IMG/VR virus record: IMGVR_UViG_640753024_000006
Span: 1 to 27,584 of that record
Length of the DNA stretch: 27,584 nucleotides
Direction: 5' to 3' (one strand)
DNA from: a virus
Lineage: Duplodnaviria; Heunggongvirae; Uroviricota; Caudoviricetes
Under the pieces are notes generated by a model. That model was not told the origin of the DNA, made no database searches, and saw only the letters and a program-made list of their open reading frames with translations. A program made the translations under genes and the position numbers. The stretch's first letter is position 1. Each line of letters opens with the position of its first letter. Positions 545 to 27,317 of the stretch are shown here, one piece after another.

Positions 545-1663
545 TCAAACAACCAATTTAACCCATTCCTGACCACGAGTATCGTTATAACGATCGGTGG
601 TTGCCTGGACTTTATGTCCCAGTAATGTTTTTGTATCAATACCCTGCGCACGGTACAGTCGTTCTGACAGGGAGCGTTGTTCATGAAATGTTGGCGGAGT
701 TTTTCCTGCTGGTGGAATTATCCTAGCCAGATCCCGTGCTTTGGCGAAGTAGTCGCTCAGGTTGTCTTTACTCATCGGCTTTGGTTGTTTCTGGTGCCGA
801 CTATGGATTAGATATGGACTTAATATTTTGTCTCGGCACCCATCAATAACTTCTTTTAACGTTATCCCAATAGCATCACAGCGTAGTGTAAGCGGTAACG
901 CCAGACGCATTCCGGTTTTTCCCTGGGTGATATGCAAGTGTTCGTTCCACACATCTGAAAAACGCATGTGGCAAATGTCATCACGGCGCTGACCAGTAAC
1001 AATCGCAAGGAGCATTGCGTTACGGATAAAGTGTTCTTCAGGCGTTGCGTTGTAAATTTTTTGCCAGTCTTCCAGGGTGAGTCTGGCTCTGGTTACTTTA
1101 GGGATCGGTTTACGGGTGGCCTCCGGAGGATTCCATCCAGGAGGAACTTCCCCTGCATGCTGTGCTTCTTTATAAATATCAACCCATAATCCACGATTTA
1201 CTCTCGCTGTGCTGACCATGTCTTTATCCAGCCACTCATCCAGTATTAATGCAAAGTCTCTTACTTCCAGTTCTTTCAATGGATGGTTTCCCAGACGGGA
1301 AACCAGGTGTGCAGCCATTCGGGCTTTTTCTTTGTGAGTTGTAGCTGCAATATCTCCATTTTTCAGTCGCGCGTCCTGTATTTTCAGATATCGATCAACC
1401 CATGCCTTTAATCTGATACCCCGACGTTTTGTTGCTGACGGACTTTCATCAATTTTGCGCATGAAATATTCAGCTTCTGCTGCAGCTATTCGCTGATTGG
1501 CTGTGGAAGCGATTTTTTCTGCTGTGCCTTTGTCTGTTCCGAGACCGTGAAATTTTCCAGTCACAGGGTTTTTATACTGGTAGTAAACCCTGCCAGTTCT
1601 GCGATCAAACTTTTCGTAAAGACCGGTTACGTCAGTGCTGTTTTTTCGTGGCCTCGGTGACAT
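545..1663 (-). CDS. int: Phage integrase, tyrosine recombinase family
   Basis: 372-aa ORF with lambda-integrase-like architecture (N-terminal arm-binding-like region, C-terminal catalytic region with R...H..R and terminal Tyr context); sits next to an excisionase-like gene at the prophage end. Confidence 0.85.
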   Translation of the reverse strand: MSPRPRKNSTDVTGLYEKFDRRTGRVYYQYKNPVTGKFHGLGTDKGTAEKIASTANQRIAAAEAEYFMRKIDESPSATKRRGIRLKAWVDRYLKIQDARLKNGDIAATTHKEKARMAAHLVSRLGNHPLKELEVRDFALILDEWLDKDMVSTARVNRGLWVDIYKEAQHAGEVPPGWNPPEATRKPIPKVTRARLTLEDWQKIYNATPEEHFIRNAMLLAIVTGQRRDDICHMRFSDVWNEHLHITQGKTGMRLALPLTLRCDAIGITLKEVIDGCRDKILSPYLIHSRHQKQPKPMSKDNLSDYFAKARDLARIIPPAGKTPPTFHEQRSLSERLYRAQGIDTKTLLGHKVQATTDRYNDTRGQEWVKLVV

Positions 1664-4975: not shown

Positions 4976-5373
4976 CTTTAAAAAGGGCGGCAGAGCAGTC
5001 ACGGAGTAAAACTGATACCGCCAAACGCCACCAGAAAATTGATAACAGAGGGCGTTGCAGCGGGGTTGTCACTTAAGCGTATGGTCAACCTGACAACCCG
5101 GTGTCCTCAACGGGGAAGGAATAACCCCGCCATACTTACCGCCGCGCCATTTCGCGGAGTGCCACAACCGGAAGCGCACGGTCGAATTAAATTTAACGAC
5201 ACCGTACAGAGAGACCAATTTCGCCGTGCGCTTTCGCGTTATGCTCTGGCTTTTCAGGGATATATCCTTTCAGTAAACTGTCAGTACCGGATTCTTATCC
5301 GTGTCCGGCGCACGACCACACGTGGCAGCGTGTTGGTCTCCATTTTTAACCCAGAACCTCAATGGAGGATAAA

Positions 5374-5583: not shown

Positions 5584-6222
5584 TTACCAGTCAATCCAGA
5601 GCGGACCGTGTTCAGCGTAAATATAACTGTACACATCCAGGTTATATTTGTGGTCTGTTAAGAACAGGCCGCAAATACATGCCGAAGCTTCCAGGGCAGC
5701 GGCTCTGTTACTGAATAACCATGTAGCAACATTCCAGCGTTTTTCTGCATCCCAGTCTTTCTCAAGGCCTGATACCATGAAGAAACCGTTAGTGTTGCCA
5801 TCAAATAATTCTGTTTCCAGATTTTTAAGCAATGCCTGATGGACTCTTGCCAGGTATTCCGCCGGAATTTCGCCACGAATTCTGATGAGATTGTCATAAA
5901 CAAACATGTTCCCCGCATATGGCGATTTTTCTTTCTTGTTTTTTAAACCAGCATCATGAGCAAACTGATCAATTTCTTCTTCCGTTGGTTTCGTATTGAT
6001 GTTTTGCGCTGTCGTTTCTGCAATTTTATTTGCCACACTATCTGAGTCGTGTTTATTTACAGACGCACAGAAATACAATCCGGTAAACGCATCGCGCACA
6101 TTACGAGCTATATTATCAGTGTCTTTTTTCGTTACCGATTCCAATGCAAGTTCGTTCAGACGATGACGAAGTGTGTGTGCTGCAATCTCCTGGATTGAAG
6201 TAGGTAAATCTTTAAATTCCAT
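5584..6222 (-). CDS. Hypothetical protein (212 aa), AT-rich, in the position lambda/Rac uses for sieB/kil-type genes
   Basis: GAGG RBS before ATG at 6222; longer in-frame start at 6234 overlaps the upstream stop as TGATG; no transmembrane segments or recognised motif. Confidence 0.6.
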   Translation of the reverse strand: MEFKDLPTSIQEIAAHTLRHRLNELALESVTKKDTDNIARNVRDAFTGLYFCASVNKHDSDSVANKIAETTAQNINTKPTEEEIDQFAHDAGLKNKKEKSPYAGNMFVYDNLIRIRGEIPAEYLARVHQALLKNLETELFDGNTNGFFMVSGLEKDWDAEKRWNVATWLFSNRAAALEASACICGLFLTDHKYNLDVYSYIYAEHGPLWIDW

Positions 6223-6233
6223 CGTCAACCTCA

Positions 6234-6386
6234 TCAGTCAGAGTTTCTTGCTAACCAGCGATGCGCGCCAGCTTCGGTTTTAAACGTTTTACTTTTGGTA
6301 TACGTCATCGCGGTGAACGTGCCGTCCTGGTTGGGAAACACGCCGCACACCAGAGATTCGTTGTTGCCAAGATCGATAGTATCCAT
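6234..6386 (-). CDS. Small DUF1391-like protein (YdaF/YdfA-like, 50 aa)
   Basis: MDTIDLGNNESLV...TAMTYTKSKTFKTE...RWL..N matches my memory of Rac YdaF / Qin YdfA small proteins; GAGG RBS upstream of ATG 6386. Confidence 0.55.
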   Translation of the reverse strand: MDTIDLGNNESLVCGVFPNQDGTFTAMTYTKSKTFKTEAGAHRWLARNSD

Positions 6387-6616
6387 GTTGACCTCATTTC
6401 CCCTTAACGCCGGGGTGGCGGAACAAAAACCTGCTGCATAGTTATTAAAGTTGAACCCTGCCGTCATGTTCTTACGCCTCGGGCTGGCTACTTAACCCCT
6501 GACCACTGCCTGGTAACTCGAAGTATTGCCCTGCGTTCTGTGGGGCGGGGTGGGTTGGTATTTTTAGTTTAATAAACATTAAACTTAAGTCAAGTAAAAA
6601 CTAAACCTCGGGACAT

Positions 6617-6655
6617 AACAAACGCAACGCTTTTGATAAAGTCGTTGCGGTTGTT
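6617..6655 (-). terminator. Long hairpin (13-bp stem, one mismatch) downstream of the toxin gene; possible terminator
   Basis: aacaaacgcaacg / cgttgcggttgtt around a 13-nt loop; T-rich tract follows only after a short gap on the minus strand. Confidence 0.35.
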
Positions 6656-6677
6656 ATGTTTCTATTGGTAGTGAAAG

Positions 6678-6956
6678 TTAGGGAAACTGGCGTCTTGCGT
6701 GGATCACGTTTACTACTTCAACGCTTGATGTTGTTACGCGGTATAGAATTATATAGTTAGGGTGGGCTACAATCTCACGCAAGCCAGGTACTCTGTCGCT
6801 TGGTGGGTATAAATACGGATGTTCGGATAACGGCAGCACACAACCCCTTAATCGCTGCCATAAGCGTTCAGCCGCATCTATGTCGAAACGAGCAATATAA
6901 CTAGTTATATCATCTAGGTCGGTATCTGCGCTTTCAAGCCATAACACGGGTAACAT
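6678..6956 (-). CDS. Type II toxin, RelE/ParE superfamily
   Basis: About 92 aa; C-terminal IILYRV...VEVVNVIHARR is typical of ParE/RelE toxins; ATG at 6956 directly follows the antitoxin stop (6958-6960). Confidence 0.7.
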   Translation of the reverse strand: MLPVLWLESADTDLDDITSYIARFDIDAAERLWQRLRGCVLPLSEHPYLYPPSDRVPGLREIVAHPNYIILYRVTTSSVEVVNVIHARRQFP

Positions 6957-12330: not shown

Positions 12331-12540
12331 AAACGGTTTGCAGTGAAAGGGGAGTTAAGTAGAATTGCTGCGGGTGCTTGAGGCTATCTGTCTCAGGCAT
12401 GAACACCAAAGGCAGATAGAGAAAAGCCCCAGTTAACATTACGCGTCCTGCAAGACGCTTAACATTAATCTGAGGCCCAATCTATGTCTCACAAATGTAG
12501 GTTAGCCTCTTACGTGCCGAAAGGCAAGGAGAAGCAGGCT

Positions 12541-12696
12541 ATGAAGCAGCAAAAGGCGATGTTAATCGCCCTTATCGTCATCTGTTTAACCGTCATAGTG
12601 ACGGCACTGGTAACGAGGAAAGACCTCTGCGAGGTACGAATCCGAACCGGCCAGACGGAGGTCGCTGTCTTCACAGCTTACGAACCTGAGGAGTAA
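12541..12696 (+). CDS. hok: Hok/Gef-family type I toxin (HokD/RelF-like)
   Basis: MKQQKAMLIALIVICLTVIVTALVTRKDLCEVRIRTGQTEVAVFTAYEPEE matches the Hok-family pattern (TM helix, conserved C..R..G.EVA.F) and my memory of RelF/HokD; AGGAGA RBS; structured leader upstream. Confidence 0.8.
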   Translation: MKQQKAMLIALIVICLTVIVTALVTRKDLCEVRIRTGQTEVAVFTAYEPEE

Positions 12697-15297: not shown

Positions 15298-15322
15298 AAA
15301 CCCGCTTAAATGCGGGTTTTTT
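15298..15322 (+). terminator. tR'-like rho-independent terminator
   Basis: aacccgc-ttaaat-gcgggtt stem-loop followed by TTTTTT. Confidence 0.8.
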
Positions 15323-15395
15323 GCTTAACTCTGTGGACCTTTTTATCTGTAGTTGTAAGATATGGATATTCTTACAATTTAGGTCGGTGAGCTTA

Positions 15396-16160
15396 ATGGA
15401 AGAACAGCACGGTAATTACTTTATAAAACGAATTCAGTTGATTGGAAGGGGTGCATTTGGCTTTGTTGAACACGTTAAGGTTTACAACCTCAACAAGGGT
15501 GAATGTGGGGATTATGCTAGAAAGGTTTTAGCCCCCGAAAAACCAGAGCTTTTGGCGCAAATAGAGCAGTTTAGAAGGCGTTTTAAAAGGGAGGTCGTGT
15601 ATCAATCACATTGCGTACATAGCAATATTGTTCCTATTTATTTGTGCGATTTGTTTGCCGAGAATCCATGGTTCATTATGGATAAAGCAGAATGTGATCT
15701 TGAGCACGAAATAACGAACAACCTTCTTACAACAGATCAAAAAATTTCAATAGTGAAAATGGTATTAGATGGTGTAGCTCACATCCATGCGAAAGGCTAT
15801 TTACACAGAGATATAAAACCATTTAATGTCTTGCGATTTAGCGACGGAACATACAAGGTGTCTGATTTTGGTCTGGTAAAAGATACAAATCCCGAAGGGG
15901 ATACCACTAAATTGACCGAGATCGGTACCCGTATGGGAAGTACAAGATATATGGCTCCCGAGATTTTATATAATGCCGAGTATTCAGTTAAGACTGATGT
16001 TTATGCGGTGGGGCGGTTAATTGAGGACTTAAATTTAGATGATAAAAAAATAAAGCCTATCATAGCGAAGTGTACCAGGATGGATAAAGATGATAGATAT
16101 CAGACAATAGATGATGTGGCGTTTGATTTTGTGCATTCTTTTTTAAGGAGTGAGTCATGA
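15396..16160 (+). CDS. Eukaryotic-like (Hanks-type) Ser/Thr protein kinase, minimal kinase domain (255 aa)
   Basis: Subdomain motifs GRGAFGFV (Gly loop), ARK (Lys), HRDIKPFN (catalytic loop), DFG, MAPE (APE), DVYAVG; AT-rich; ATGA overlap with the downstream gene. Confidence 0.85.
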   Translation: MEEQHGNYFIKRIQLIGRGAFGFVEHVKVYNLNKGECGDYARKVLAPEKPELLAQIEQFRRRFKREVVYQSHCVHSNIVPIYLCDLFAENPWFIMDKAECDLEHEITNNLLTTDQKISIVKMVLDGVAHIHAKGYLHRDIKPFNVLRFSDGTYKVSDFGLVKDTNPEGDTTKLTEIGTRMGSTRYMAPEILYNAEYSVKTDVYAVGRLIEDLNLDDKKIKPIIAKCTRMDKDDRYQTIDDVAFDFVHSFLRSES

Positions 16161-16900
16161 TTCAGCTGATAGCGACTTCATCATTCTCGTATCCAAAAGA
16201 ACCAGGTAGGGTCAACGAAGATTCATTGCTTCCTCCCAAAATTGTAGGGGATGGCATCTTATTTGCCGTAGCTGATGGTGTAGGTTCATACACTGGTGCC
16301 AGTCAGGCTTCATCAATGGCAATTGCTGAACTTTCAGCATTGACAAGCTTATCTTTTGACACAGTTCCGGATGTATTTGATGAAGTTAAGCGAAAGGTTA
16401 TGTCGTTAGCTGATGTTAATGATGAGTTCGATAAAGCTGCTACTACACTTACGTTTTGTTATGTTTGTGATAGCGGAATTATTATTGGTCATATTGGTGA
16501 TTGTCGTTTGTATTGCATTGGAGAGAAGAAAGCATACCAATTGACGAAGGACGATACCAGGCATCAGATGCTAATTGATCAGAATATTTTTAAACCCAGA
16601 GATTTGAAGGATAAACCGGGCAAAAATATCTTAACGACGGCGATAGCCTCAAATGTTGATATGGAATACGACTGTGATTTTATCACATGGAAAGATTTAC
16701 CTAGTATTAACGGGGTATATCATCTGTGTATCATGTCTGATGGGGTTCATAACGTTTGGGAAAAACGCCCCAGATTTACATCAAATACGATGAGTAATAG
16801 TCAGAAGTTTTCTAATGGCATTTTGCGTCGTATAGAGAGAGCCGGACCTGATGATGACTTTTCTTTAGTAAGTATAATGGTGCGTGTGACGTCAGATTAG
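16157..16900 (+). CDS. PP2C-family (PPM) Ser/Thr protein phosphatase
   Basis: Motifs RVNEDS, FAVADGVGS (DGxG), HIGDCRLY (GDSR-like) and MSDGV; 247 aa; coupled to the kinase gene. Confidence 0.8.
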   Translation: MIQLIATSSFSYPKEPGRVNEDSLLPPKIVGDGILFAVADGVGSYTGASQASSMAIAELSALTSLSFDTVPDVFDEVKRKVMSLADVNDEFDKAATTLTFCYVCDSGIIIGHIGDCRLYCIGEKKAYQLTKDDTRHQMLIDQNIFKPRDLKDKPGKNILTTAIASNVDMEYDCDFITWKDLPSINGVYHLCIMSDGVHNVWEKRPRFTSNTMSNSQKFSNGILRRIERAGPDDDFSLVSIMVRVTSD

Positions 16901-17467: not shown

Positions 17468-18517
17468 ATGACTAATACTGTAAAAATATCCAGTTGTGAG
17501 TTAATCAACGCTGATTGCCTGAAATTTATCCAGACCTTACCGGAAAACTCTGTCGATCTGATAGTCACAGACCCGCCATACTTTAAAGTGAAGCCCGAGG
17601 GCTGGGATAACCAGTGGGAGGGCGACGATGATTACCTGAAATGGCTGGACCAGTGTCTGGCGCAGTTCTGGCGGGTACTGAAGCCTGCCGGAAGTCTTTA
17701 CCTGTTCTGTGGTCATCGCCTGGCATCTGACACCGAAATCATGATGCGTGAGCGCTTTAATGTGCTGAACCACATTATCTGGGCGAAGCCGTCCGGACGC
17801 TGGAACGGGTGCAATAAGGAAAGTCTGCGGGCGTATTTTCCGGCAACAGAGCGCATTCTGTTTGCAGAACATTATCAGGGACCGTATCGCCCGAAAGATG
17901 ATGGCTATGTGGCACAGGGGCGCGAGCTAAAACAGCACGTCATGGCCCCGCTGATTTCTTACTTTCGTGATGCGCGTAAATCACTGGGAATAACGTCAAA
18001 ACAGATAGCGGAAGCCACCGGAAAGAAAAACATGGCTTCGCACTGGTTTGGTACCAGTCAGTGGCAGTTACCGAACGAGGGTGATTACAACAAATTGCAG
18101 GCGTTGTTTGCGCGTGTTGCGGCAGAAAAACATCAGCGCGGGGAACTGGAAAAACCACACCACCAGCTGGTCAGCACATACAGTGAGCTGAACCGGCAGT
18201 ATACGGAATTGCTGAGTGAATATAAAAATTTGCGGCGGTATTTCGGTGTGACGGCGCAGGTTCCGTACACCGATGTCTGGACGCATAAACCGGTGCAGTA
18301 CTATCCAGGGAAACATCCGTGCGAAAAACCGGCAGAAATGCTGCAGCAGATAATCAACGCGAGCAGTCGTCCGGGAGACCTGGTTGCAGATTTTTTTATG
18401 GGTTCAGGTTCAACGGTAAAAGCGGCGATGGCACTGGGGCGTTGTGCGATTGGTGTTGAGCTGGAGACAGGACGTTTTGAACAGACAGTCAGGGAAGTTC
18501 AGGATTTAATCGTTTGA
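17468..18517 (+). CDS. DNA methyltransferase, N6-adenine (or N4-cytosine) beta-class
   Basis: DPPY motif (VTDPPYF) near the N-terminus and FxGxG SAM motif (FFMGSGST) near the C-terminus; 349 aa; same position as the methylase in Stx-type phages. Confidence 0.85.
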   Translation: MTNTVKISSCELINADCLKFIQTLPENSVDLIVTDPPYFKVKPEGWDNQWEGDDDYLKWLDQCLAQFWRVLKPAGSLYLFCGHRLASDTEIMMRERFNVLNHIIWAKPSGRWNGCNKESLRAYFPATERILFAEHYQGPYRPKDDGYVAQGRELKQHVMAPLISYFRDARKSLGITSKQIAEATGKKNMASHWFGTSQWQLPNEGDYNKLQALFARVAAEKHQRGELEKPHHQLVSTYSELNRQYTELLSEYKNLRRYFGVTAQVPYTDVWTHKPVQYYPGKHPCEKPAEMLQQIINASSRPGDLVADFFMGSGSTVKAAMALGRCAIGVELETGRFEQTVREVQDLIV

Positions 18518-18566: not shown

Positions 18567-18642
18567 GGCCCTTTAGCTCAGTGGTGAGAGCGAGCGACTC
18601 ATAATCGCCAGGTCGCTGGTTCAAATCCAGCAAGGGCCACCA
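18567..18642 (+). tRNA. tRNA with anticodon CAU (Ile2/lysidine type, ileX/ileZ-like, or Met)
   Basis: Cloverleaf folds by hand: 7-bp acceptor GGCCCTT/AAGGGCC, D-arm GCTC..GAGC, anticodon loop CTCATAA, T-loop GGTTCAAATCC, CCA end. Confidence 0.8.
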
Positions 18643-18643
18643 A

Positions 18644-18720
18644 CCGTCACCAGTTCATCAGGAAAGAGCGTCAACCCTTTAAGTTGAGTGTGCGAGGTTC
18701 GAGTCCCCGGTGGCGGTCCA
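18644..18720 (+). tRNA. Aberrant tRNA-like element (anticodon-loop CCTTTAA, apparent anticodon UUU with C at position 33); possibly a degenerate tRNA
   Basis: Acceptor CCGTCAC/GTGGCGG (one G-U), T-loop GGTTCGAGTCC and CCA end, but non-canonical C33 and a mismatched T-stem. Confidence 0.35.
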
Positions 18721-18722
18721 GT

Positions 18723-18798
<76 letters not shown>

Positions 18799-18801
18799 TA
18801 T

Positions 18802-18876
<75 letters not shown>

Positions 18877-19178: not shown

Positions 19179-19303
19179 TTCATTTTTTTTTCATGGCTCG
19201 CTACGGCGGGCCTTTTTCATATCCTCGCCACACCCGGCGCATATCACATCAAATAACGCCGCGCAAAAGGCATCTGCGGGTGCCTTTGACGGGGTGTTTT
19301 TAC

Positions 19304-19327
19304 GGGCCGCTGGCGGCCCTTTTTTAT
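19304..19327 (+). terminator. Rho-independent terminator just upstream of the lysis genes
   Basis: gggccgc-tg-gcggccc hairpin followed by TTTTTT. Confidence 0.75.
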
Positions 19328-19344
19328 TTACAGGAGAAAAACGT

Positions 19345-19737
19345 ATGTCTGAACCCTTATCCGGTTCCGGCACGGCTGCGGCGCTCGGTGGGGCGACGGT
19401 GTACGGGCTGTTTACCGGAACGGATTTCGGGATTGTGTTTGGTGCGTTCGCCGGGGCGTTATTTGTGGCAACGATGCCGCAGGCGCTTTCAGTCTGGCGT
19501 GTGGTGGCGCATTTTCTGGTGTCGTTTATTGTCGGCGTGCTGGGAGCGCGTGTGCTGTCAGCCTGGATTGCATCAAAAACAGGGTATGACGGTACATCGG
19601 CAGATGCGCTGTGTGCGGTGCTGGTATCGGTGGTGTCGGTGAAGGTTCTGTCGTTCATCCACCAGCAGGATATTGCATCGCTGGTGTCCGGTGTGTTCTC
19701 CCGCCTGCGGGGCGGAGGTGGCGGCAATGTTAAGTAA
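19345..19737 (+). CDS. Putative holin (multi-pass membrane protein, 130 aa)
   Basis: AGGAG RBS before ATG 19345; several hydrophobic helices; first gene of a cluster ending in an endolysin. Confidence 0.5.
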   Translation: MSEPLSGSGTAAALGGATVYGLFTGTDFGIVFGAFAGALFVATMPQALSVWRVVAHFLVSFIVGVLGARVLSAWIASKTGYDGTSADALCAVLVSVVSVKVLSFIHQQDIASLVSGVFSRLRGGGGGNVK

Positions 19738-20002
19738 CCTTCCCGGATTGCTGAATGTGGCGTTATGCACGGTTATCGTGCTGACGCTCTTTTTTTATCG
19801 TCGTCGCGATTCCAGACATAAGCCGCTGATGTCATGGCTGGCCTGGCTGCTGATGCTGCTGTATGCCTTTGCACCACTCAGTTATCTGTGCGGTCGCCCG
19901 TTAGCGGCGAACTGGCTGGCGGTGGGGCTTAATCTGCTGTTCTGCGTGCTGGTGATACGTGCACGCGGGAACGTTTCAAAAATCCTTTCATTACGGAGGT
20001 GA
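19727..20002 (+). CDS. Second small membrane protein of the lysis cassette (holin/antiholin-like, 91 aa)
   Basis: GGAGG RBS; start overlaps the previous stop; 2-3 hydrophobic helices; stop abuts the endolysin start. Confidence 0.45.
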   Translation: MLSNLPGLLNVALCTVIVLTLFFYRRRDSRHKPLMSWLAWLLMLLYAFAPLSYLCGRPLAANWLAVGLNLLFCVLVIRARGNVSKILSLRR

Positions 20003-20004
20003 GT

Positions 20005-20382
20005 ATGCCCGGTAAATTCAGATTCAGTCGTCGAAGTGAGAAAAATCTGGAGGGCGTCAAACCACAGCTGGTTGCTGTTGTTCGCCGTGCGCTGGAGCTG
20101 ACGGAGGTTGACTTCGGTATTACGGAAGGCCTGCGCAGTAAGTATCGCCAGAAGCAGCTGGTCGCGGAAGGGAAAAGCCAGACCATGAACAGCCGCCACC
20201 TGACCGGTGATGCGGTGGATGTTGTGGCCTACATTGGTAGCCAGGTGTCATGGGACTGGCCTCTGTACGAGAAAATCGCGCAGGCATTTAAGCAGGCTGC
20301 CGCAGAGCTGGGAACTGCCATCGAATGGGGCGGGGACTGGAAAACACTGAAAGACGGGCCTCACTTTCAGTTGAAGCGCTAA
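20005..20382 (+). CDS. Endolysin, peptidase M15 family (L-alanyl-D-glutamate peptidase, T5 Lys-like)
   Basis: Zinc-ligand pattern H..D (SRHLTGDAVD) and C-terminal H (GPHFQL); overall resemblance to T5 endolysin as I recall it; GGAGG RBS. Confidence 0.8.
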   Translation: MPGKFRFSRRSEKNLEGVKPQLVAVVRRALELTEVDFGITEGLRSKYRQKQLVAEGKSQTMNSRHLTGDAVDVVAYIGSQVSWDWPLYEKIAQAFKQAAAELGTAIEWGGDWKTLKDGPHFQLKR

Positions 20383-20579: not shown

Positions 20580-20666
20580 TCGCCTGTAAGAGCAGAATAT
20601 TGTTGAATCTAAATTTACTTTGAACAGTGGCCCGGATGGAAAGGGCATCTAAATAGGAGCAGAAAA

Positions 20667-20876
20667 ATGTTAACTGTAAAAGTCATGTCTCAAAATGGTG
20701 GGGAAGAGCTCCATTGCGGGCGTAGCATTGGCTATCATCCAGAGCAGCGGAGTATTGCCGTATCGGGAAAGGATGGGAAAGTCATTCTGAAAGATGGAGA
20801 TATTGCTTATGTAATGAACCAAAACGCTCAAATAATATCTGTTTATCGGCCCAATAATAGTCAGAAAAACATTTGA
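20667..20876 (+). CDS. Hypothetical small protein (69 aa), AT-rich moron
   Basis: AGGAG RBS before ATG 20667; no recognised motif. Confidence 0.45.
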   Translation: MLTVKVMSQNGGEELHCGRSIGYHPEQRSIAVSGKDGKVILKDGDIAYVMNQNAQIISVYRPNNSQKNI

Positions 20877-20999
20877 ATTTCGCAAGTCCAAAGTTCAGTG
20901 GTGATCGTTATCAACTAATTGAAATAACAAGCTTATGTTTGTGTAATTGGTGATATAGCATGTTAATGCTGAATATCAGCGTCAACATGGAGTTATACA

Positions 21000-21215
21000 A
21001 TGGTTTTTAAACACTATTACGTGAACAAAAATGCTCAGAGCAATGGCGATCATGAGGTGCATGCTGAGGAATGTTCATATCTTCCTGCTGTAGCTAACCG
21101 CGATTACCTTGGTTACTATAGTGATTGTTCTTCGGCGGTAACAGAGGCAAAGGCCAAAGGATATTCCCGGGTGAATGGTTGCTATTGGTGTGCCAATAAG
21201 TGCCACACGTCTTAA
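21000..21215 (+). CDS. Hypothetical small Cys-rich protein (71 aa)
   Basis: Six Cys including a C-Y-W-C pair; followed by a clean terminator at 21238-21257. Confidence 0.45.
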   Translation: MVFKHYYVNKNAQSNGDHEVHAEECSYLPAVANRDYLGYYSDCSSAVTEAKAKGYSRVNGCYWCANKCHTS

Positions 21216-21237
21216 TCAATTGTCAATAAACCATAAA

Positions 21238-21257
21238 GGCCGCTCTGCGGCCTTTTT
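21238..21257 (+). terminator. Rho-independent terminator
   Basis: ggccgc-tct-gcggcc hairpin followed by TTTTT. Confidence 0.75.
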
Positions 21258-21519
21258 CATGTTAAAAAAGATTGCGGCATTACAGCAGCCCTTCACACTG
21301 AGTGGCTGCGATAATGTGAGAAATAAAAAACCGGCAGGGGAAATCCATTGAAGATTTGCCGGTGGCAAAAAGATGGCCATGCTTTCAACCTTAGTCGCAG
21401 GGTTACGGAGTGCAACTACGAATGCTGCCGGTATATGGCTGAATGGCGTTTCAATGATGTACGTCATCTTATCTGTAAATGTTAATGATAAAAGCTCTCA
21501 TTTGTGCGGGTCCTTCCGG

Positions 21520-21720
21520 TGGGGTGGCCTGCCACGGGGCGGAAGGCGCGCGGGTTTTCGCTATTTATGAAAATTTTCCGGGGAAAATCATGTCGGTACT
21601 TCTCGAACATAACTATTTGTTTTTTCTAATATCGAATCCGTAAAAGGTCCGACATGAAAACGCCTAAAAAAGTCATTTTCGGGCACTTTCATGTCGGACC
21701 CTGTGTTTGTTGTGAGACTG
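21520..21720 (+). other. Lambda-like cos site (cosQ-cosN-cosB) upstream of Nu1
   Basis: gggtccttccggtg (cosQ-like), then GGGCGGAAGGCG followed by cgcgggttttcgctatttatgaaaattttccgg, matching my memory of the lambda left end after cosN; 14-bp inverted repeat ggtccgacatgaaa / tttcatgtcggacc at 21646-21700 where lambda cosB has R sites. Confidence 0.7.
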
Positions 21721-21724
21721 TTTC

Positions 21725-22279
21725 ATGAAGGTTAATAAAAAGAAACTTGCCGAAATTTTCAACGTGGATCCGCGAACGATTGAACGCTGGCAGTCTCAGG
21801 GACTCCCTTGCGTCTCCGGAGGTGGTAAGGGCGTTGAATCTGTATTTGATACCTCCATGGCAATTCAGTGGTATGCACAGAGGGAGGCTGATATCGAAAA
21901 TGAAAAACTCCGTAAAGAGGTTGAGGATTACAGAGCTGCCAGTGAGGCAGATCTCCAGCCTGGGACTATTGAGTACGAACGCCATCGACTTACGCGTGCG
22001 CAGGCCGACGCACAGGAGCTGAAGAATGCCAGAGACTCCGCAGAAGTGGTGGAAACCGCATTCTGTACTTTCGTGCTGTCACGGATCGCAGGTGAAATTG
22101 CCAGTATTCTTGACGGGATCCCTCTCTCGGTACAGCGGCGTTTTCCGGAACTGGAAAACCGACATGTTGATTTCCTGAAACGGGATATCATCAAAGCCAT
22201 GAACAAAGCAGCCGCGCTGGATGAACTGATATGGCTTACAGCCGTGTTTCGACTTTCTCCGGGGATTATCTCCGCGTAA
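21725..22279 (+). CDS. nu1: Terminase small subunit Nu1 homolog, C-terminus replaced at a deletion junction
   Basis: N-terminal ~170 aa closely resemble lambda Nu1 as I recall it (conserved ...[60 protein letters not shown]...); the last residues run into lom-derived DNA. Confidence 0.85.
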
Positions 22280-22476
22280 CTGACAACAAGGGGAAAACGC
22301 ACGACGTGCTGACCGGAAGTGATGACGGTCGCCACAGCAACACGTCTCTGGCGTGGGGGGCTGGCGTGCAGTTTAACCCGACCGAATCCGTGGCCATTGA
22401 TATTGCTTATGAAGGCTCCGGCAGTGGTGACTGGCGCACTGACGGTTTCATCGTGGGTGTCAGTTATAAATTCTGA
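22240..22476 (+). pseudogene. lom: 3' remnant of lom (Ail/Lom outer-membrane protein family)
   Basis: Translation [25 protein letters not shown]...DGFIVGVSYKF is a Lom/Ail C-terminal beta-barrel end (terminal F); no N-terminal part or signal peptide present. Confidence 0.8.
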
Positions 22477-22502
22477 TTAGCCAGGTAACACAGTGTTATG
22501 AC

Positions 22503-22529
22503 AGCCCGCCGGTTCAGGCGGGCTTTTTT
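22503..22529 (+). terminator. Rho-independent terminator between lom and stf
   Basis: agcccgcc-ggttca-ggcgggct hairpin followed by TTTTTT. Confidence 0.8.
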
Positions 22530-22540
22530 GTGGGGTGAAT

Positions 22541-25500
22541 ATGGCAGTAAAGATTTCAGGTGTACTGAAAGACGGCACAGGAAAACCGGTACAGAACTGC
22601 ACAATCCAGCTGAAAGCAAAACGTAACAGCACCACGGTGGTGGTGAACACACTGGCCTCAGAAAATCCGGATGAAGCCGGGCGTTACAGCATGGACGTTG
22701 AGTACGGTCAGTACAGCGTTATTCTGTTGGTGGAAGGCTTCCCGCCGTCACATGCCGGGACCATCACCGTGTATGAAGATTCCCGACCCGGTACGCTGAA
22801 TGATTTTCTCGGTGCCATGACGGAGGATGATGCCCGTCCTGAGGCACTGCGCCGTTTTGAACTGATGGTGGAAGAGGTGGCGCGTAACGCGTCCGCGGTG
22901 GCACAGAACACGGCAGCCGCGAAGAAGTCAGCCAGCGATGCCGGCACATCAGCCCGTGAGGCGGCAACCCATGCGACTGATGCTGCAGGCTCAGCACGCG
23001 CAGCCAGCACGTCAGCCGGACAGGCCGCGTCGTCGGCTCAGTCAGCGTCTTCCAGCGCAGGAACGGCATCAACAAAGGCTACTGAAGCATCAAAAAGTGC
23101 TGCTGCTGCAGAGTCCTCAAAAAGCGCGGCAGCTACCAGTGCCAGTGCCGCGAAAACGTCAGAAACGAATGCGGCAGCGTCACAAAAATCTGCAGCCACT
23201 TCTGCATCCGCCGCGACCACAAAGGCGTCAGAAGCTGCCACCTCAGCCCGGGATGCGGCGGCCTCAAAAGAGGCAGCGAAATCATCAGAAACGAACGCAT
23301 CATCAAGCGCCAGTAGTGCAGCTTCCTCGGCAACGGCGGCAGGAAATTCCGCGAAGGCGGCAAAGACGTCCGAGACGAACGCCAGGTCTTCTGAAACGGC
23401 AGCGGGACAGAGTGCCTCAGCTGCGGCAGGCTCAAAAACAGCGGCTGCGTCGTCTGCCAGCGCCGCGTCAACAAGTGCCGGGCAGGCCTCAGCCAGTGCC
23501 ACCGCCGCCGGAAAATCGGCAGAAAGCGCCGCATCATCCGCTTCAACAGCCACAACGAAGGCTGGCGAAGCCACTGAGCAGGCCAGCGCAGCAGCGAGGT
23601 CTGCTTCTGCAGCAAAAACCTCTGAAACAAATGCAAAGACTTCAGCAGACAATGCTGCTTCCTCTAAGGCGGCAGCCGCATCGTCCGCTGGTTCAGCGGC
23701 GTCATCGGCATCATCTGCGTCTGCTTCAAAAGATGAGGCGACCAGACAAGCGTCAGCAGCGAAAGGTAGTGCCACGACAGCAACAACGAAAGCATTAGAG
23801 GCGGCAGGCAGTGCGACGGCTGCATCTCAGAGCAAAGTTGCTGCTGAATCCGCGGCAACGCGCGCCGAGACAGCGGCAAAACGGGCAGAGGATATTGCAT
23901 CCGCCGTGGCGCTTGAGGATGCGAGCACGACGAAAAAGGGGATAGTCCAGCTCAGCAGTGCGACCAACAGTACGTCTGAAACGCTGGCGGCAACGCCAAA
24001 GGCAGTAAAATCAGCCTATGACAATGCAGAGAAACGTCTGCAGAAAGACCAGAACGGCGCTGATATACCCGATAAGGGACGCTTCCTGAACAACATTAAC
24101 GCGGTCAGTAAAACAGACTTTGCTGATAAGCGTGGTATGCGTTATGTGCGGGTTAACGCTCCTGCAGGTGCAACATCTGGAAAATATTACCCTGTTGTTG
24201 TTATGCGTTCTGCTGGCTCAGTAAGCGAACTGGCATCAAGGGTCATTATCACCACGGCAACGCGAACCGCAGGCGATCCGATGAATAACTGCGAGTTTAA
24301 CGGATTTGTTATGCCTGGTGGCTGGACTGACAGGGGGCGTTATGCTTATGGAATGTTCTGGCAATATCAAAACAATGAACGAGCCATCCACTCAATAATG
24401 ATGAGTAATAAGGGCGATGATTTGCGCTCTGTGTTCTATGTTGATGGCGCTGCTTTCCCTGTTTTTGCGTTTATCGAAGATGGCCTGTCAATATCCGCAC
24501 CTGGTGCTGATCTCGTTGTTAATGATACGACCTATAAGTTTGGTGCAACAAATCCAGCGACTGAATGTATCGCGGCGGACGTTATCCTTGATTTTAAGAG
24601 TGGGCGTGGTTTTTATGAGTCCCATTCGTTAATCGTTAACGATAACTTGTCGTGCAAAAAACTTTTTGCCACAGACGAAATTGTAGCGCGTGGTGGTAAT
24701 CAGATTCGAATGATAGGTGGGGAGTATGGTGCATTATGGCGTAATGATGGCGCTAAAACTTACCTGCTGCTTACCAATCAAGGTGATGTTTATGGTGGCT
24801 GGAATACATTAAGACCGTTTGCTATTAATAACGCAACCGGCGAACTGGTTATTGGAACCAAACTGTCCGCAAGTCTGAACGGTAATGCATTAACAGCAAC
24901 AAAGCTGCAAACGCCAAGACTGGTTTCTGGTGTTGAGTTTGATGGTTCCAGAGATATTACTTTAACCGCTGCGCATGTGGCTGCTTTTGCCAGAAGGGCA
25001 ACGGATACATATGCCGATGCGGATGGTGGCGTTCCCTGGAATGCCGAATCAGGCGCTTACAATGTCACCCGCTCTGGCGACACCTATATTCTGGTTAACT
25101 TCTATACCGGAGTCGGAAGTTGCCGGACCCTGCAGATGAAGGCGCATTACAGAAATGGTGGTCTGTTCTACCGTTCCTCAAGAGATGGCTATGGTTTTGA
25201 GGAAGACTGGGCAGAAGTTTATACCTCGAAAAATCTTCCACCAGAAAGCTACCCAGTCGGCGCACCAATCCCGTGGCCATCAGATACCGTTCCGTCTGGT
25301 TATGCCCTGATGCAGGGGCAGACTTTTGACAAATCTGCTTACCCGAAACTTGCAGCCGCTTATCCGTCAGGTGTGATCCCTGATATGCGTGGCTGGACGA
25401 TTAAGGGCAAACCTGCCAGTGGTCGGGCCGTATTGTCTCAGGAACAGGACGGCATTAAATCGCACACCCACAGCGCCAGCGCATCCAGTACGGATTTGGG

Positions 25501-25954
25501 GACGAAAACCACATCGTCGTTTGATTACGGCACTAAATCCACGAATAACACCGGGGCGCATACGCACAGTCTGAGTGGCTCTACGGGGTCTGCCGGTGTT
25601 CATACTCATGGTAATGGTATTCGTTGGCCAGGAGGCGGCGGTTCTGCGTTATCATTTTATGATGGCGGTGGGTTCACTTATGTCCAGAATTCACAGTATC
25701 AAGTAAGCCCGGAGACTTCTTCCTATAGATCGTATTATCAACGTATTCAGACACAGTCAGCAGGTGCTCATACCCACTCGCTGTCTGGTACTGCAGCAAG
25801 TTCTGGCGCACATGCACATACTGTAGGTATTGGTGCGCATACGCACTCCGTTGCGATTGGTTCACATGGACACACCATCACCGTTAACGCTGCGGGTAAC
25901 GCGGAAAACACCGTCAAAAACATCGCATTTAACTATATTGTGAGGCTTGCATAA
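22541..25954 (+). CDS. stf: Side tail fibre protein Stf (long Ala/Ser-rich repeat shaft, C-terminal HxH-repeat tip)
   Basis: N-terminus [26 protein letters not shown]... matches lambda Stf as I recall it; ~350-aa Ala/Ser/Thr-rich low-complexity region with KxSETNA repeats; C-terminal GAHTHS/HxH repeats typical of fibre tips. Confidence 0.9.
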
Positions 25955-26538
25955 TGGCATTCAGAATGAGTGAACAAGCACGGACCATAAAAATTTATAA
26001 TCTGCTGGCCGGAACTAATGAATTTATTGGTGAAGGTGACGCATATATTCCGCCTCATACAGGTCTGCCAGCAAACAGTACCGATATTGCACCACCAGAT
26101 ATTCCTGCTGGCTTTGTGGCTGTTTTCAACAGTGATGAGGCATCGTGGCATCTCGTTGAAGACCATCGGGGTAAAACGGTTTATGACGTAGCGTCAGGGG
26201 ACGAGTTATTTATTTCTGAACTCGGTCCGTTACCGGAAAATGTTACCTGGTTATCGCCGGAAGGGGAGTTTCAGAAGTGGAACGGCACAGCCTGGGTGAA
26301 GGATACGGAAGCAGAAAAACTGTTCCGGATCCGGGAGGCGGAAGAAACAAAAAACAACCTGATGCAGGTAGCCAGTGAGCATATTGCGCCGCTTCAGGAT
26401 GCTGCAGATCTGGAAATTGCAACGGAGGAAGAAACCTCATTGCTGGAAGCCTGGAAAAAGTATCGGGTGTTGCTGAACCGTGTTGATACATCAACTGCAC
26501 CTGATATTGAGTGGCCTACGAACCCTGTCAGGGAGTAA
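25954..26538 (+). CDS. tfa: Tail fibre assembly chaperone Tfa
   Basis: 194 aa; start overlaps the stf stop (TAATG); conserved Tfa C-terminal region (...[25 protein letters not shown]...). Confidence 0.85.
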
Positions 26539-26592: not shown

Positions 26593-27249
26593 CTATTTTT
26601 TCCCTGAAGCGGAAAACATTACTACAGTACCTTGAACCTTGGTTTTAACATTCTCGAAATGCTCTGAGAGTATATGTGTTAAGCCTTCTTCGGAATCTTT
26701 TGTGTTTGAAAAGATGCCTTTCTGATTGTAAATGCGCATCAGTTTTTGACCGAAGCTATTGTGCACAACTCCATCGCCAAGAATTGTGGCTCCGTATAGA
26801 GTTCCATCGTCAGTTAAGGCCTGCGCCGCATTGCGTATTACACAGCTTTTTGTAGATATATTTCCAGGCAGGCAGTGAAGAAGGTAAAACATGGAAATGG
26901 AATCAAATTGACCATGTAACGCCGCGGGATAAGGTTCAAAAACATCATGGCTAATTTTATGTTTAATTTTTGATTCCCCAGCCCTTGTCGATGCCGCGTT
27001 CAGGCTAGCTTCGTTCAAATCCATTAAAGATATCAGACTACTCTCAGGTACGTGGGTAAGGTAAAACCCAGTTCCAACACCAATATCCAGATGGTTGTTA
27101 CCTACATGTTCCAGAAAGTGTGGAAGAAGGTGTTCCTTTGTAGGACATCCCCATGCAAGCCGATTTGATACTCCCAAAACCCACCAGTCATAAAGCTTTA
27201 GGGTAAGTGGTGTGTAAATTTTAGCCCCATCATCTGTGTTTTTTTTCAT
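26593..27249 (-). CDS. Class I SAM-dependent methyltransferase (substrate unknown), AT-rich
   Basis: Motif I HLDIGVGTGFY (hh-D-h-G-x-G-x-G); GGTGA RBS before ATG 27249; opposite strand to the fibre genes. Confidence 0.75.
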   Translation of the reverse strand: MKKNTDDGAKIYTPLTLKLYDWWVLGVSNRLAWGCPTKEHLLPHFLEHVGNNHLDIGVGTGFYLTHVPESSLISLMDLNEASLNAASTRAGESKIKHKISHDVFEPYPAALHGQFDSISMFYLLHCLPGNISTKSCVIRNAAQALTDDGTLYGATILGDGVVHNSFGQKLMRIYNQKGIFSNTKDSEEGLTHILSEHFENVKTKVQGTVVMFSASGKK

Positions 27250-27317
27250 TGATTTCACCATGTTATAGTTTTATTTGTGAATTAAATCAATTATGGCGAT
27301 GAATTACAAGGGGTTAA

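Follow-up and report, generated by a model that had tools for sequence, protein, structure and literature searches.

Does a prophage that has lost its head genes still carry a packaging signal that a terminase could cut? The question is raised by positions 21520 to 21720 of a 27,584-nucleotide stretch of viral DNA (IMG/VR record IMGVR_UViG_640753024_000006; the whole stretch is termed the window herein), for which a preliminary description had proposed an intact lambda-like cos site retained in a prophage without packaging and structural genes. As judged from their sequence, positions 21508 to 21703 of the window form a complete, intact lambda-family cos in an E. coli prophage. We consider it very likely that this cos is a relic that is unable to act in cis and would still be a substrate in trans for the terminase of a helper phage.

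Subsites of the cos and their specificity

The region was aligned with the joined ends of lambda, phage 21, phage IdasGreatGrand, and the prophage of E. coli ATCC 43896, and all cos subsites were found to be in register with these four, so that a cos-like organization is present. The packaging-termination subsite cosQ (GGGTCCT, positions 21508 to 21514, plus strand) is the same 7-mer as in lambda, at the homologous position; it begins 29 bp ahead of cohesive-end base G1, compared with 30 bp in lambda. The cosN (21535 to 21550, plus strand) contains the 12-mer GGGCGGAAGGCG at 21537 to 21548, preceded by ACG and followed by CGCGG (21534 to 21553), so that CG dinucleotides flank both predicted nick positions. 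The pattern ACGGGGCGGNNNNNNCGCGG matched at 21534 to 21553 and in none of 100 shuffles. By homology with the conserved flanks, nicks 12 bases apart at cosN would produce 12-base 5' cohesive ends. The left half of cosN (bp 1 to 6, GGGCGG) and both CG flanks are the same as those of lambda, and the 12-mer differs from the lambda 12-mer, GGGCGGCGACCT, at bp 7, 8, 9, 10, and 12. The site thus has the features of a lambda-like cos, namely, a cosQ about 30 bp upstream of cosN and a conserved left half with flanking CGs, the latter taken from a study reporting that cosQ, the cosN left half, and the flanking CGs are conserved among lambda-like phages (PMC4669245). The segment between cosN and cosB (21549 to 21581, plus strand) is identical to lambda bp 13 to 45 at 33/33 positions. 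A cosQ-like motif upstream, a 12-mer unlike that of lambda, and a lambda match behind it had all been named in the preliminary description, and all three hold.

Downstream of this segment, the sites expected of a complex cosB are present in order, with R3 at +50 to +65, I1 at +74 to +86, R2 at +108 to +123, and R1 at +151 to +167, followed by the nu1 ATG at +189 (expected TerS position, about +190). R3, a putative small-terminase binding site (21586 to 21601, plus strand), matches the annotated R3 of phage 21 (bp 50 to 65, equally far from cosN) at 15/16 positions and the R3 of lambda at only 10/16. R2, in inverted orientation (21644 to 21659, minus strand), and R1 (21687 to 21703, plus strand) match their annotated phage 21 counterparts at 16/16 and 15/17 positions, respectively, and the R sites have a CATGTCGG core in common with phage 21. 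Between R3 and R2 lies I1 (21610 to 21622, minus strand; AAACAAATAGTTA), which has one mismatch to the IHF consensus WATCAANNNNTTR and is identical to the annotated phage 21 I1 at 12/13 positions. A 14-bp perfect inverted repeat (21646 to 21659 and 21687 to 21700), which can be extended to 25 nt at 84% complementarity, is the core of R2, which contains its left arm, and of R1, which contains its right arm. The preliminary description had correctly located this repeat where lambda cosB has its R sites. Because of the R-site matches and because bp +13 to +188 are 81% identical to phage 21 versus 58% to lambda, the cosB is predicted to have phage 21 specificity and not lambda specificity, and the 21-type R sites are accompanied by a matching recognition helix in the small terminase (TerS).

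TerS is encoded by nu1' (21725 to 22279, plus strand), which matches Pfam Phage_Nu1 (E = 2.7e-90) over residues 1 to 164 of the 164-position profile. Amino acids 1 to 70 are identical to phage 21 gp1 at 60/70 positions, and the recognition helix RTIERWQS (residues 17 to 24) is the same as in gp1, compared with RTIQNWQE in lambda; amino acids 71 to 169 are identical to lambda Nu1 at 97/99 positions. Reading breaks off at codon 169: the last 12 amino acids of Nu1 are absent, and 15 out-of-frame residues from lom follow instead. In lambda, the C-terminal ∼40 residues of Nu1 bind the large terminase subunit gpA; the TerS of the window is without its extreme C terminus, which falls in this TerL-binding region. 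Because its first 70 residues are phage 21-like and residues 71 to 169 are lambda-like, the protein is a natural 21/lambda chimera. It resembles the experimental hybrid TerS proteins of PMC4669245, the laboratory lambda-21 hybrids in which the TerS C-terminal part is likewise of lambda type.

Phage 21 itself has R3, I1, R2, and R1 in the same order and spacing with near-identical R sites, but it has the lambda 12-mer, and the C-terminal part of its gp1 is only 55/99 identical to the lambda-type part in the window. The match to IdasGreatGrand is closer: positions 21549 to 22231 (683 bp) are 98.5% identical to the cos-TerS region of this phage and about 82% identical to phage 21, but IdasGreatGrand has the standard lambda 12-mer and left arm. 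A cos can thus be recognized and subtyped from sequence alone, with regard to cosB specificity, cosN allele, and mosaic arms.

The AAGGCG cosN allele and the left arm

The right half of the 12-mer, AAGGCG, is a recurrent variant. A total of 81 IMG/VR viral contigs contain the exact pattern ACGGGGCGGAAGGCGCGCGG, and the left arms joined to it are of several kinds. A cosQ-like motif is located upstream in 80 of the 81, and all 80 have a lambda/21-type right arm, with a cosB of lambda type in 58, of phage 21 type in 17, and of a third type in 5. In at least 39 of the AAGGCG contigs, the adjoining TerL is an uninterrupted 641-codon gene whose product is 98 to 100% identical to lambda gpA (100% in contig L053); in two contigs, the TerL found with the allele shares only 66% identity with gpA. 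From −60 to +190, the cos of the window is identical at 250/250 positions to contigs L012, L018, L059, and L062, each of which has uninterrupted ORFs for a 181/182-amino-acid TerS and a 641/638-amino-acid TerL. Two phage records, PhiR46_1 and YDC107_1, contain the allele as well; a search for literature on the PhiR phage series found none, and plaque-forming status of these phages is taken from the GenBank record. A 41-mer spanning cosQ to cosN was detected in about 55 of 5,426 complete E. coli genomes at ≥99% identity. A full-text literature search for the 12-mer and its reverse complement matched only unrelated plant and Streptomyces papers. Because of the 81 contigs, the pairing with lambda-like TerL, the identical cos in front of complete TerS and TerL genes, and the phage records, AAGGCG is considered to be a natural allele that probably works, not a product of decay.

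Variation in this half of cosN is common. A generic cosN scan of the viral contigs yielded at least 120 matches, and those listed include 89 cosQ-associated sites with 12 right-half alleles; the frequencies among the matches listed, a sample and not a census, are CGACCT 50, GAGCGT 12, CGCGCT 8, GAGCGG 4, and 3 each for CAGCGG, CTGGCT, and AAGGCG, along with others. Differences at bp 7 to 12 are common among lambda-like phages without selection, and many mutations there have a minimal phenotypic effect and little effect on cleavage (PMC4669245). The named natural variants include N15 and phiD326 (differing at bp 9 and 12), Gifsy-1 (bp 8, 9, and 11), and mEp213 and LLS, which have yet another allele, GGGCGGCGCGCT (PMC4669245 for N15 and Gifsy-1; PMC12315714 for mEp213 and LLS). 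Vahanian et al. (2017, Virology 509:140), as cited in PMC9026076 and PMC12315714, surveyed natural cosN variants and listed 12. With five positions different from lambda, AAGGCG departs further than the examples named here and, as GGGCGGAAGGCG, extends the known right-half variation of lambda-like cohesive ends by an allele that has five differences and many carriers.

The preliminary description had expected the 12-mer to change cohesive-end specificity. This holds for annealing, since the variant alters which single-stranded ends pair with each other: a 2-base cohesive-end mismatch already cut the yield to about 25% (PMC4669245), and AAGGCG ends would have 5 mismatches to lambda ends. It does not extend to the enzyme, for which nothing suggests that recognition would change, with AAGGCG located beside a TerL 98 to 100% identical to lambda gpA; lambda and N15-hybrid terminases were reported to have no cosN specificity (PMC4669245). 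Covariation of the cosN allele with TerL was considered and rejected, since AAGGCG occurs together with TerL proteins that match lambda gpA completely or almost completely.

The DNA on the left of cosN has another origin. Over 140 bp, it is 78% identical to phage phi458, with the final 31 bases identical, and only 39% identical to lambda. The phi458-type phages have a 700-amino-acid TerL that is about 24% identical to gpA, a different TerS (of the DUF1441 family by annotation in the related prophage of E. coli APEC 102026, which is also annotated with a fused protease-capsid gene), and the 12-mer GGGCGGGAGCGT. Positions 21397 to 21543 of the window, comprising upstream DNA, cosQ, the spacer, and the left half of cosN, correspond to this phi458/APEC 102026 lineage. 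The right arm is of 21/lambda type, and the mosaic boundary is located inside cosN. Exchange at cos is to be expected: in crosses of lambda with the defective prophage DLP12, 10 of 19 sequenced junctions were directly beside cos (PMC3945230). In other IMG/VR contigs, the same left arm was observed with lambda-type right arms carrying CGACCT (L201) or CAGCGG (L111).

The nu1-lom deletion and the surviving prophage

Homology to nu1 stops at position 22231, which corresponds to lambda bp 697, and the deletion junction lies at 22231/22232. From there, lom' (22232 to 22476, plus strand), the 3' fragment of an Ail/Lom outer-membrane protein gene, covers positions 120 to 199 of the 199-position Pfam profile Ail_Lom (E = 2.4e-42). 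The DNA alignment with lambda lom stopped short of the junction, lom being too diverged there, and this side was settled by protein comparison: the sequence from 22232 onward encodes a product that is 54% identical to lambda Lom residues 126 to 206. In lambda coordinates, the junction brings bp 697 (nu1 codon 169) next to about bp 19340 (lom codon ∼126), and about 18.6 kb, A through J, is missing across it. The genes gone between nu1 and mid-lom are A, W, B, C, Nu3, D, E, FI, FII, and the tail genes Z through J. One illegitimate deletion thus took out the large terminase together with every head and tail-shaft gene and left the cos DNA untouched. Downstream of nu1, a packaging-competent lambdoid prophage would continue with genes for the large terminase, portal, protease/scaffold, capsid, and tail; downstream of its nu1-lom fusion, the window has only stf (side tail fiber; 22535 to 25954, plus strand; Pfam phage_tail_N, Gp34_trimer, and Collar) and tfa (side tail fiber assembly protein; 25954 to 26538, plus strand; Pfam Caudo_TAP), which are the only virion genes left. 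The preliminary description was therefore right that an intact lambda-like cos stands in a prophage without large terminase, portal, capsid, and tail-shaft genes, and it went too far in stating that packaging and structural genes are lacking altogether, since a near-complete nu1, stf, and tfa are present.

A related prophage of E. coli ATCC 43896 has a cos and TerS as in the window, followed by a full lambda-like head and tail set, including A (interrupted by IS66), W, and genes for portal, protease, decoration protein, capsid, and tail. The exact nu1-lom junction had no contiguous match among 5,426 complete E. coli genomes. In E. coli L725 (L207, positions 6193 to 6927), the nu1 breakpoint is the same to the base as in the window, with a lambda-type cosB, and a further 17 bp of lom is missing, which restores the frame and yields a 244-amino-acid Nu1::Lom chimera; RefSeq annotates this ORF as an Ail/Lom outer-membrane protein. 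Strains M8, M3, C11, and CI5 show a BLAST pattern like that of L725, in which alone the junction itself was inspected, and the nu1 breakpoint with 17 bp less lom therefore appears to be common to L725 and these strains. The junction of the window looks ancestral relative to the L725 type.

That a gutted lambdoid prophage can retain its cos has a precedent in DLP12 (qsr') of E. coli K-12, whose cos-nohD remnant is the closest analogue of the window; the Qin prophage with nohA is similar. Like the window, DLP12 is a defective lambdoid prophage that has kept lysis genes, a complete cosQ-cosN-cosB, and a Nu1 homologue, and in which a deletion joins the terminase region to tail-fiber genes. DLP12 differs in having a lambda-type cosN (CGACCT), a lambda-type cosB, a full-length 181-amino-acid NohD, and a gene A stub fused to tail-fiber-assembly sequence, whereas the window has the AAGGCG cosN, a phage 21-type cosB, a break 12 codons before the end of nu1, and lom as the fusion partner. 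In DLP12, cos acts as a hotspot of recombination with lambda, and the nu1 homologue nohD is functional in lambda (PMC3945230). The cos of the window is a further instance of this well-known kind, real but ordinary, and has little significance beyond annotation.

Positions 540 to 22030 of the window are 97.5% identical to prophages of enterotoxigenic E. coli strains, the most similar found. The window encodes an integrase (545 to 1663, minus strand), replication-type genes, the antiterminator Q, a Ser/Thr kinase, and a DNA methylase. Because the lysis genes (two holin-family ORFs and an M15 peptidase endolysin; 19294 to 20382, plus strand; Pfam Phage_holin_8, Phage_holin_3_7, and Peptidase_M15_4) are located upstream of it, the cos is in the usual late-operon position, and the order of lysis genes and cos matches that in the related prophage of ATCC 43896. 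Three RNA features scored above the Rfam gathering score: a DicF antisense RNA (4985 to 5036, minus strand), a sok antitoxin RNA of a hok/sok locus (12372 to 12546, plus strand), and IS009 (26297 to 26495, plus strand), the last inside the tfa gene.

Several further observations were made in the window. The kinase (15321 to 16900; Pfam Pkinase, E = 2.8e-33) is eukaryote-like and located between Q and the lysis region, and the ORF after it corresponds to a PP2C phosphatase annotated in a related prophage (L008); the two ORFs form a late-operon moron pair. A cluster of four tRNA genes (Met-CAT, Lys-TTT, Thr-TGT, and Gly-TCC; 18567 to 18876) lies just downstream of the DNA methyltransferase gene (17468 to 18517) and upstream of the holins, and the tRNA sets at the same spot in related prophages differ (Ile/Arg in L005; Ile/Lys/Gly in L008). 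Just after tfa, an ORF for a class I SAM-dependent methyltransferase is located on the opposite strand (26593 to 27261, minus strand); a frameshifted pseudogene for such an enzyme is found in the same position at the right end of DLP12 in K-12, which suggests a right-end module common to both.

Possible activity in trans and rival explanations

With no TerL, portal, or capsid and a TerS without its extreme C terminus, the element cannot cut or package its own DNA. The cis-acting determinants all appear to be intact, and we infer from this that the cos could be active in trans. The packaging module would originally have been a natural hybrid, consisting of a phi458/Gifsy-like left arm (cosQ and spacer), the AAGGCG cosN, a cosB and TerS DNA-binding domain of phage 21 specificity, and a lambda-type C-terminal part of TerS; the deletion that fused nu1 codon 169 to mid-lom would have occurred afterwards as a single illegitimate event. 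In a cell with a co-resident or infecting lambda-like helper, the helper's phage 21-type TerS would bind R3, R2, and R1, and IHF would bend the DNA at I1. TerL would thereby be positioned and cosN nicked 12 bases apart, and packaging would proceed rightwards toward stf, tfa, and adjacent DNA. In addition, packaging that began at an upstream cos could be terminated at cosQ-cosN by any lambda-like terminase. The cuts would be expected to stimulate recombination, making the site a hotspot for exchange or rescue of the cos-nu1 module by related phages. Complete packaging would require a second cos in the right orientation and at the right distance. One point against this reading is the cosQ-cosN spacing, 1 bp under that of lambda, which is the same in phi458 and in prophages with intact terminase genes; in practice, moreover, the relic may never meet a compatible terminase. 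More generally, gutted prophages keep cis-acting packaging signals that helper phages could still cut and recombine with, and this site, if cut in vivo, would make its place on the chromosome liable to breakage by phages and to the exchange of modules. Because the integrase, replication genes, Q, lysis genes, and an apparently intact cos of phage 21 specificity are present, mobilization by a helper is conceivable. We nevertheless regard it as unlikely that the prophage is mobilizable by a compatible helper or that its cos serves as a helper-driven start for packaging of the adjacent chromosome and as a hotspot of double-strand breaks, with ends of an AAGGCG annealing group incompatible with lambda ends.

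Such helper dependence would be taken furthest if the element were a satellite like the cos-type phage-inducible chromosomal islands (PICIs), keeping its cos for packaging by helper terminase and capsids after induction, excision, and replication. The integrase, replication-type genes, Q, lysis genes, and cos in the absence of capsid genes would fit a satellite, and the non-autonomous E. coli PICIs (PICI-A and others) carry a cosQ-cosN close to the lambda-like one and hijack lambda-like terminase, on which they depend (PMC9026076). PICIs, however, have no phage R sites and encode Rpp after cos, whereas the window has a phage cosB and an ordinary nu1 in this place and no rpp-like redirecting gene; its genes are those expected of a lambdoid prophage, in which one deletion has left a scar within two genes, and are not arranged as in a PICI. 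A mobile lineage that spreads successfully would also be hard to reconcile with the absence of the exact junction from all 5,426 complete E. coli genomes searched. The lower packaging limit of the lambda head is about 38 kb, and the visible element (∼27 kb, from int to beyond tfa) is well under this minimum, while a dimer would be over the maximum. A satellite is thus decidedly improbable, and with rpp absent after cos and phage R sites present, identity as a PICI was rejected. Very unlikely, too, is the opposite reading, that the site is an inactivated pseudo-cos, inert debris that can no longer be cleaved owing to its altered 12-mer or its shorter cosQ-cosN spacing. The element is clearly decaying, 5 of the 12 cohesive-end bases are unlike those of lambda, and the spacing is 29 rather than 30 bp. 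A cos that is the same base for base, however, precedes complete TerS and TerL ORFs in four contigs, dozens of contigs combine AAGGCG with a lambda-identical TerL, two phage records have the allele, phi458 has the same left arm, and every change lies within bp 7 to 12, where a minimal effect on cleavage has been reported (PMC4669245).

Selection could also have acted on the protein instead of the site. The truncated TerS (Nu1 residues 1 to 169 plus 15 foreign residues) would then be a packaging decoy that occupies the 21-type cosB of incoming phages without recruiting TerL and so protects the host. The DNA-binding domain and most of TerS are intact, and the gene lies in the late operon, after Q and the lysis genes. 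Nothing indicates, however, that it is expressed while the prophage is repressed, and no promoter-like site was found within positions 20600 to 22700; the lom-derived C-terminal residues are read out of frame and seem to be an accident of the fusion, and the junction in the sister lineage, 17 bp shorter, indicates that no specific fusion product is conserved. We regard such a decoy as extremely unlikely. The probability that the cos resemblance is a short chance match is close to nil: nothing speaks for it beyond the preliminary description's own caveat, and it is at odds with the 683 bp of 98.5% identity to a phage cos-TerS region, with every subsite in register, and with a cosN pattern that did not recur in the shuffles. 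A relic cos that remains a candidate substrate for helper terminase is therefore the reading we prefer.

Other arrangements of cos sites were observed among the IMG/VR contigs. Pairs in opposite orientation, 500 to 900 bp apart, are present in L101 (4189 plus, 4711 minus), L112 (3794 plus, 4659 minus), and L141 (2361 plus, 3226 minus), and the 12-kb contig L117 carries three cos sites in the same orientation (93, 8228, and 10764, all plus). These multi-cos contigs may be tandem or inverted prophage remnants or assembly artifacts.
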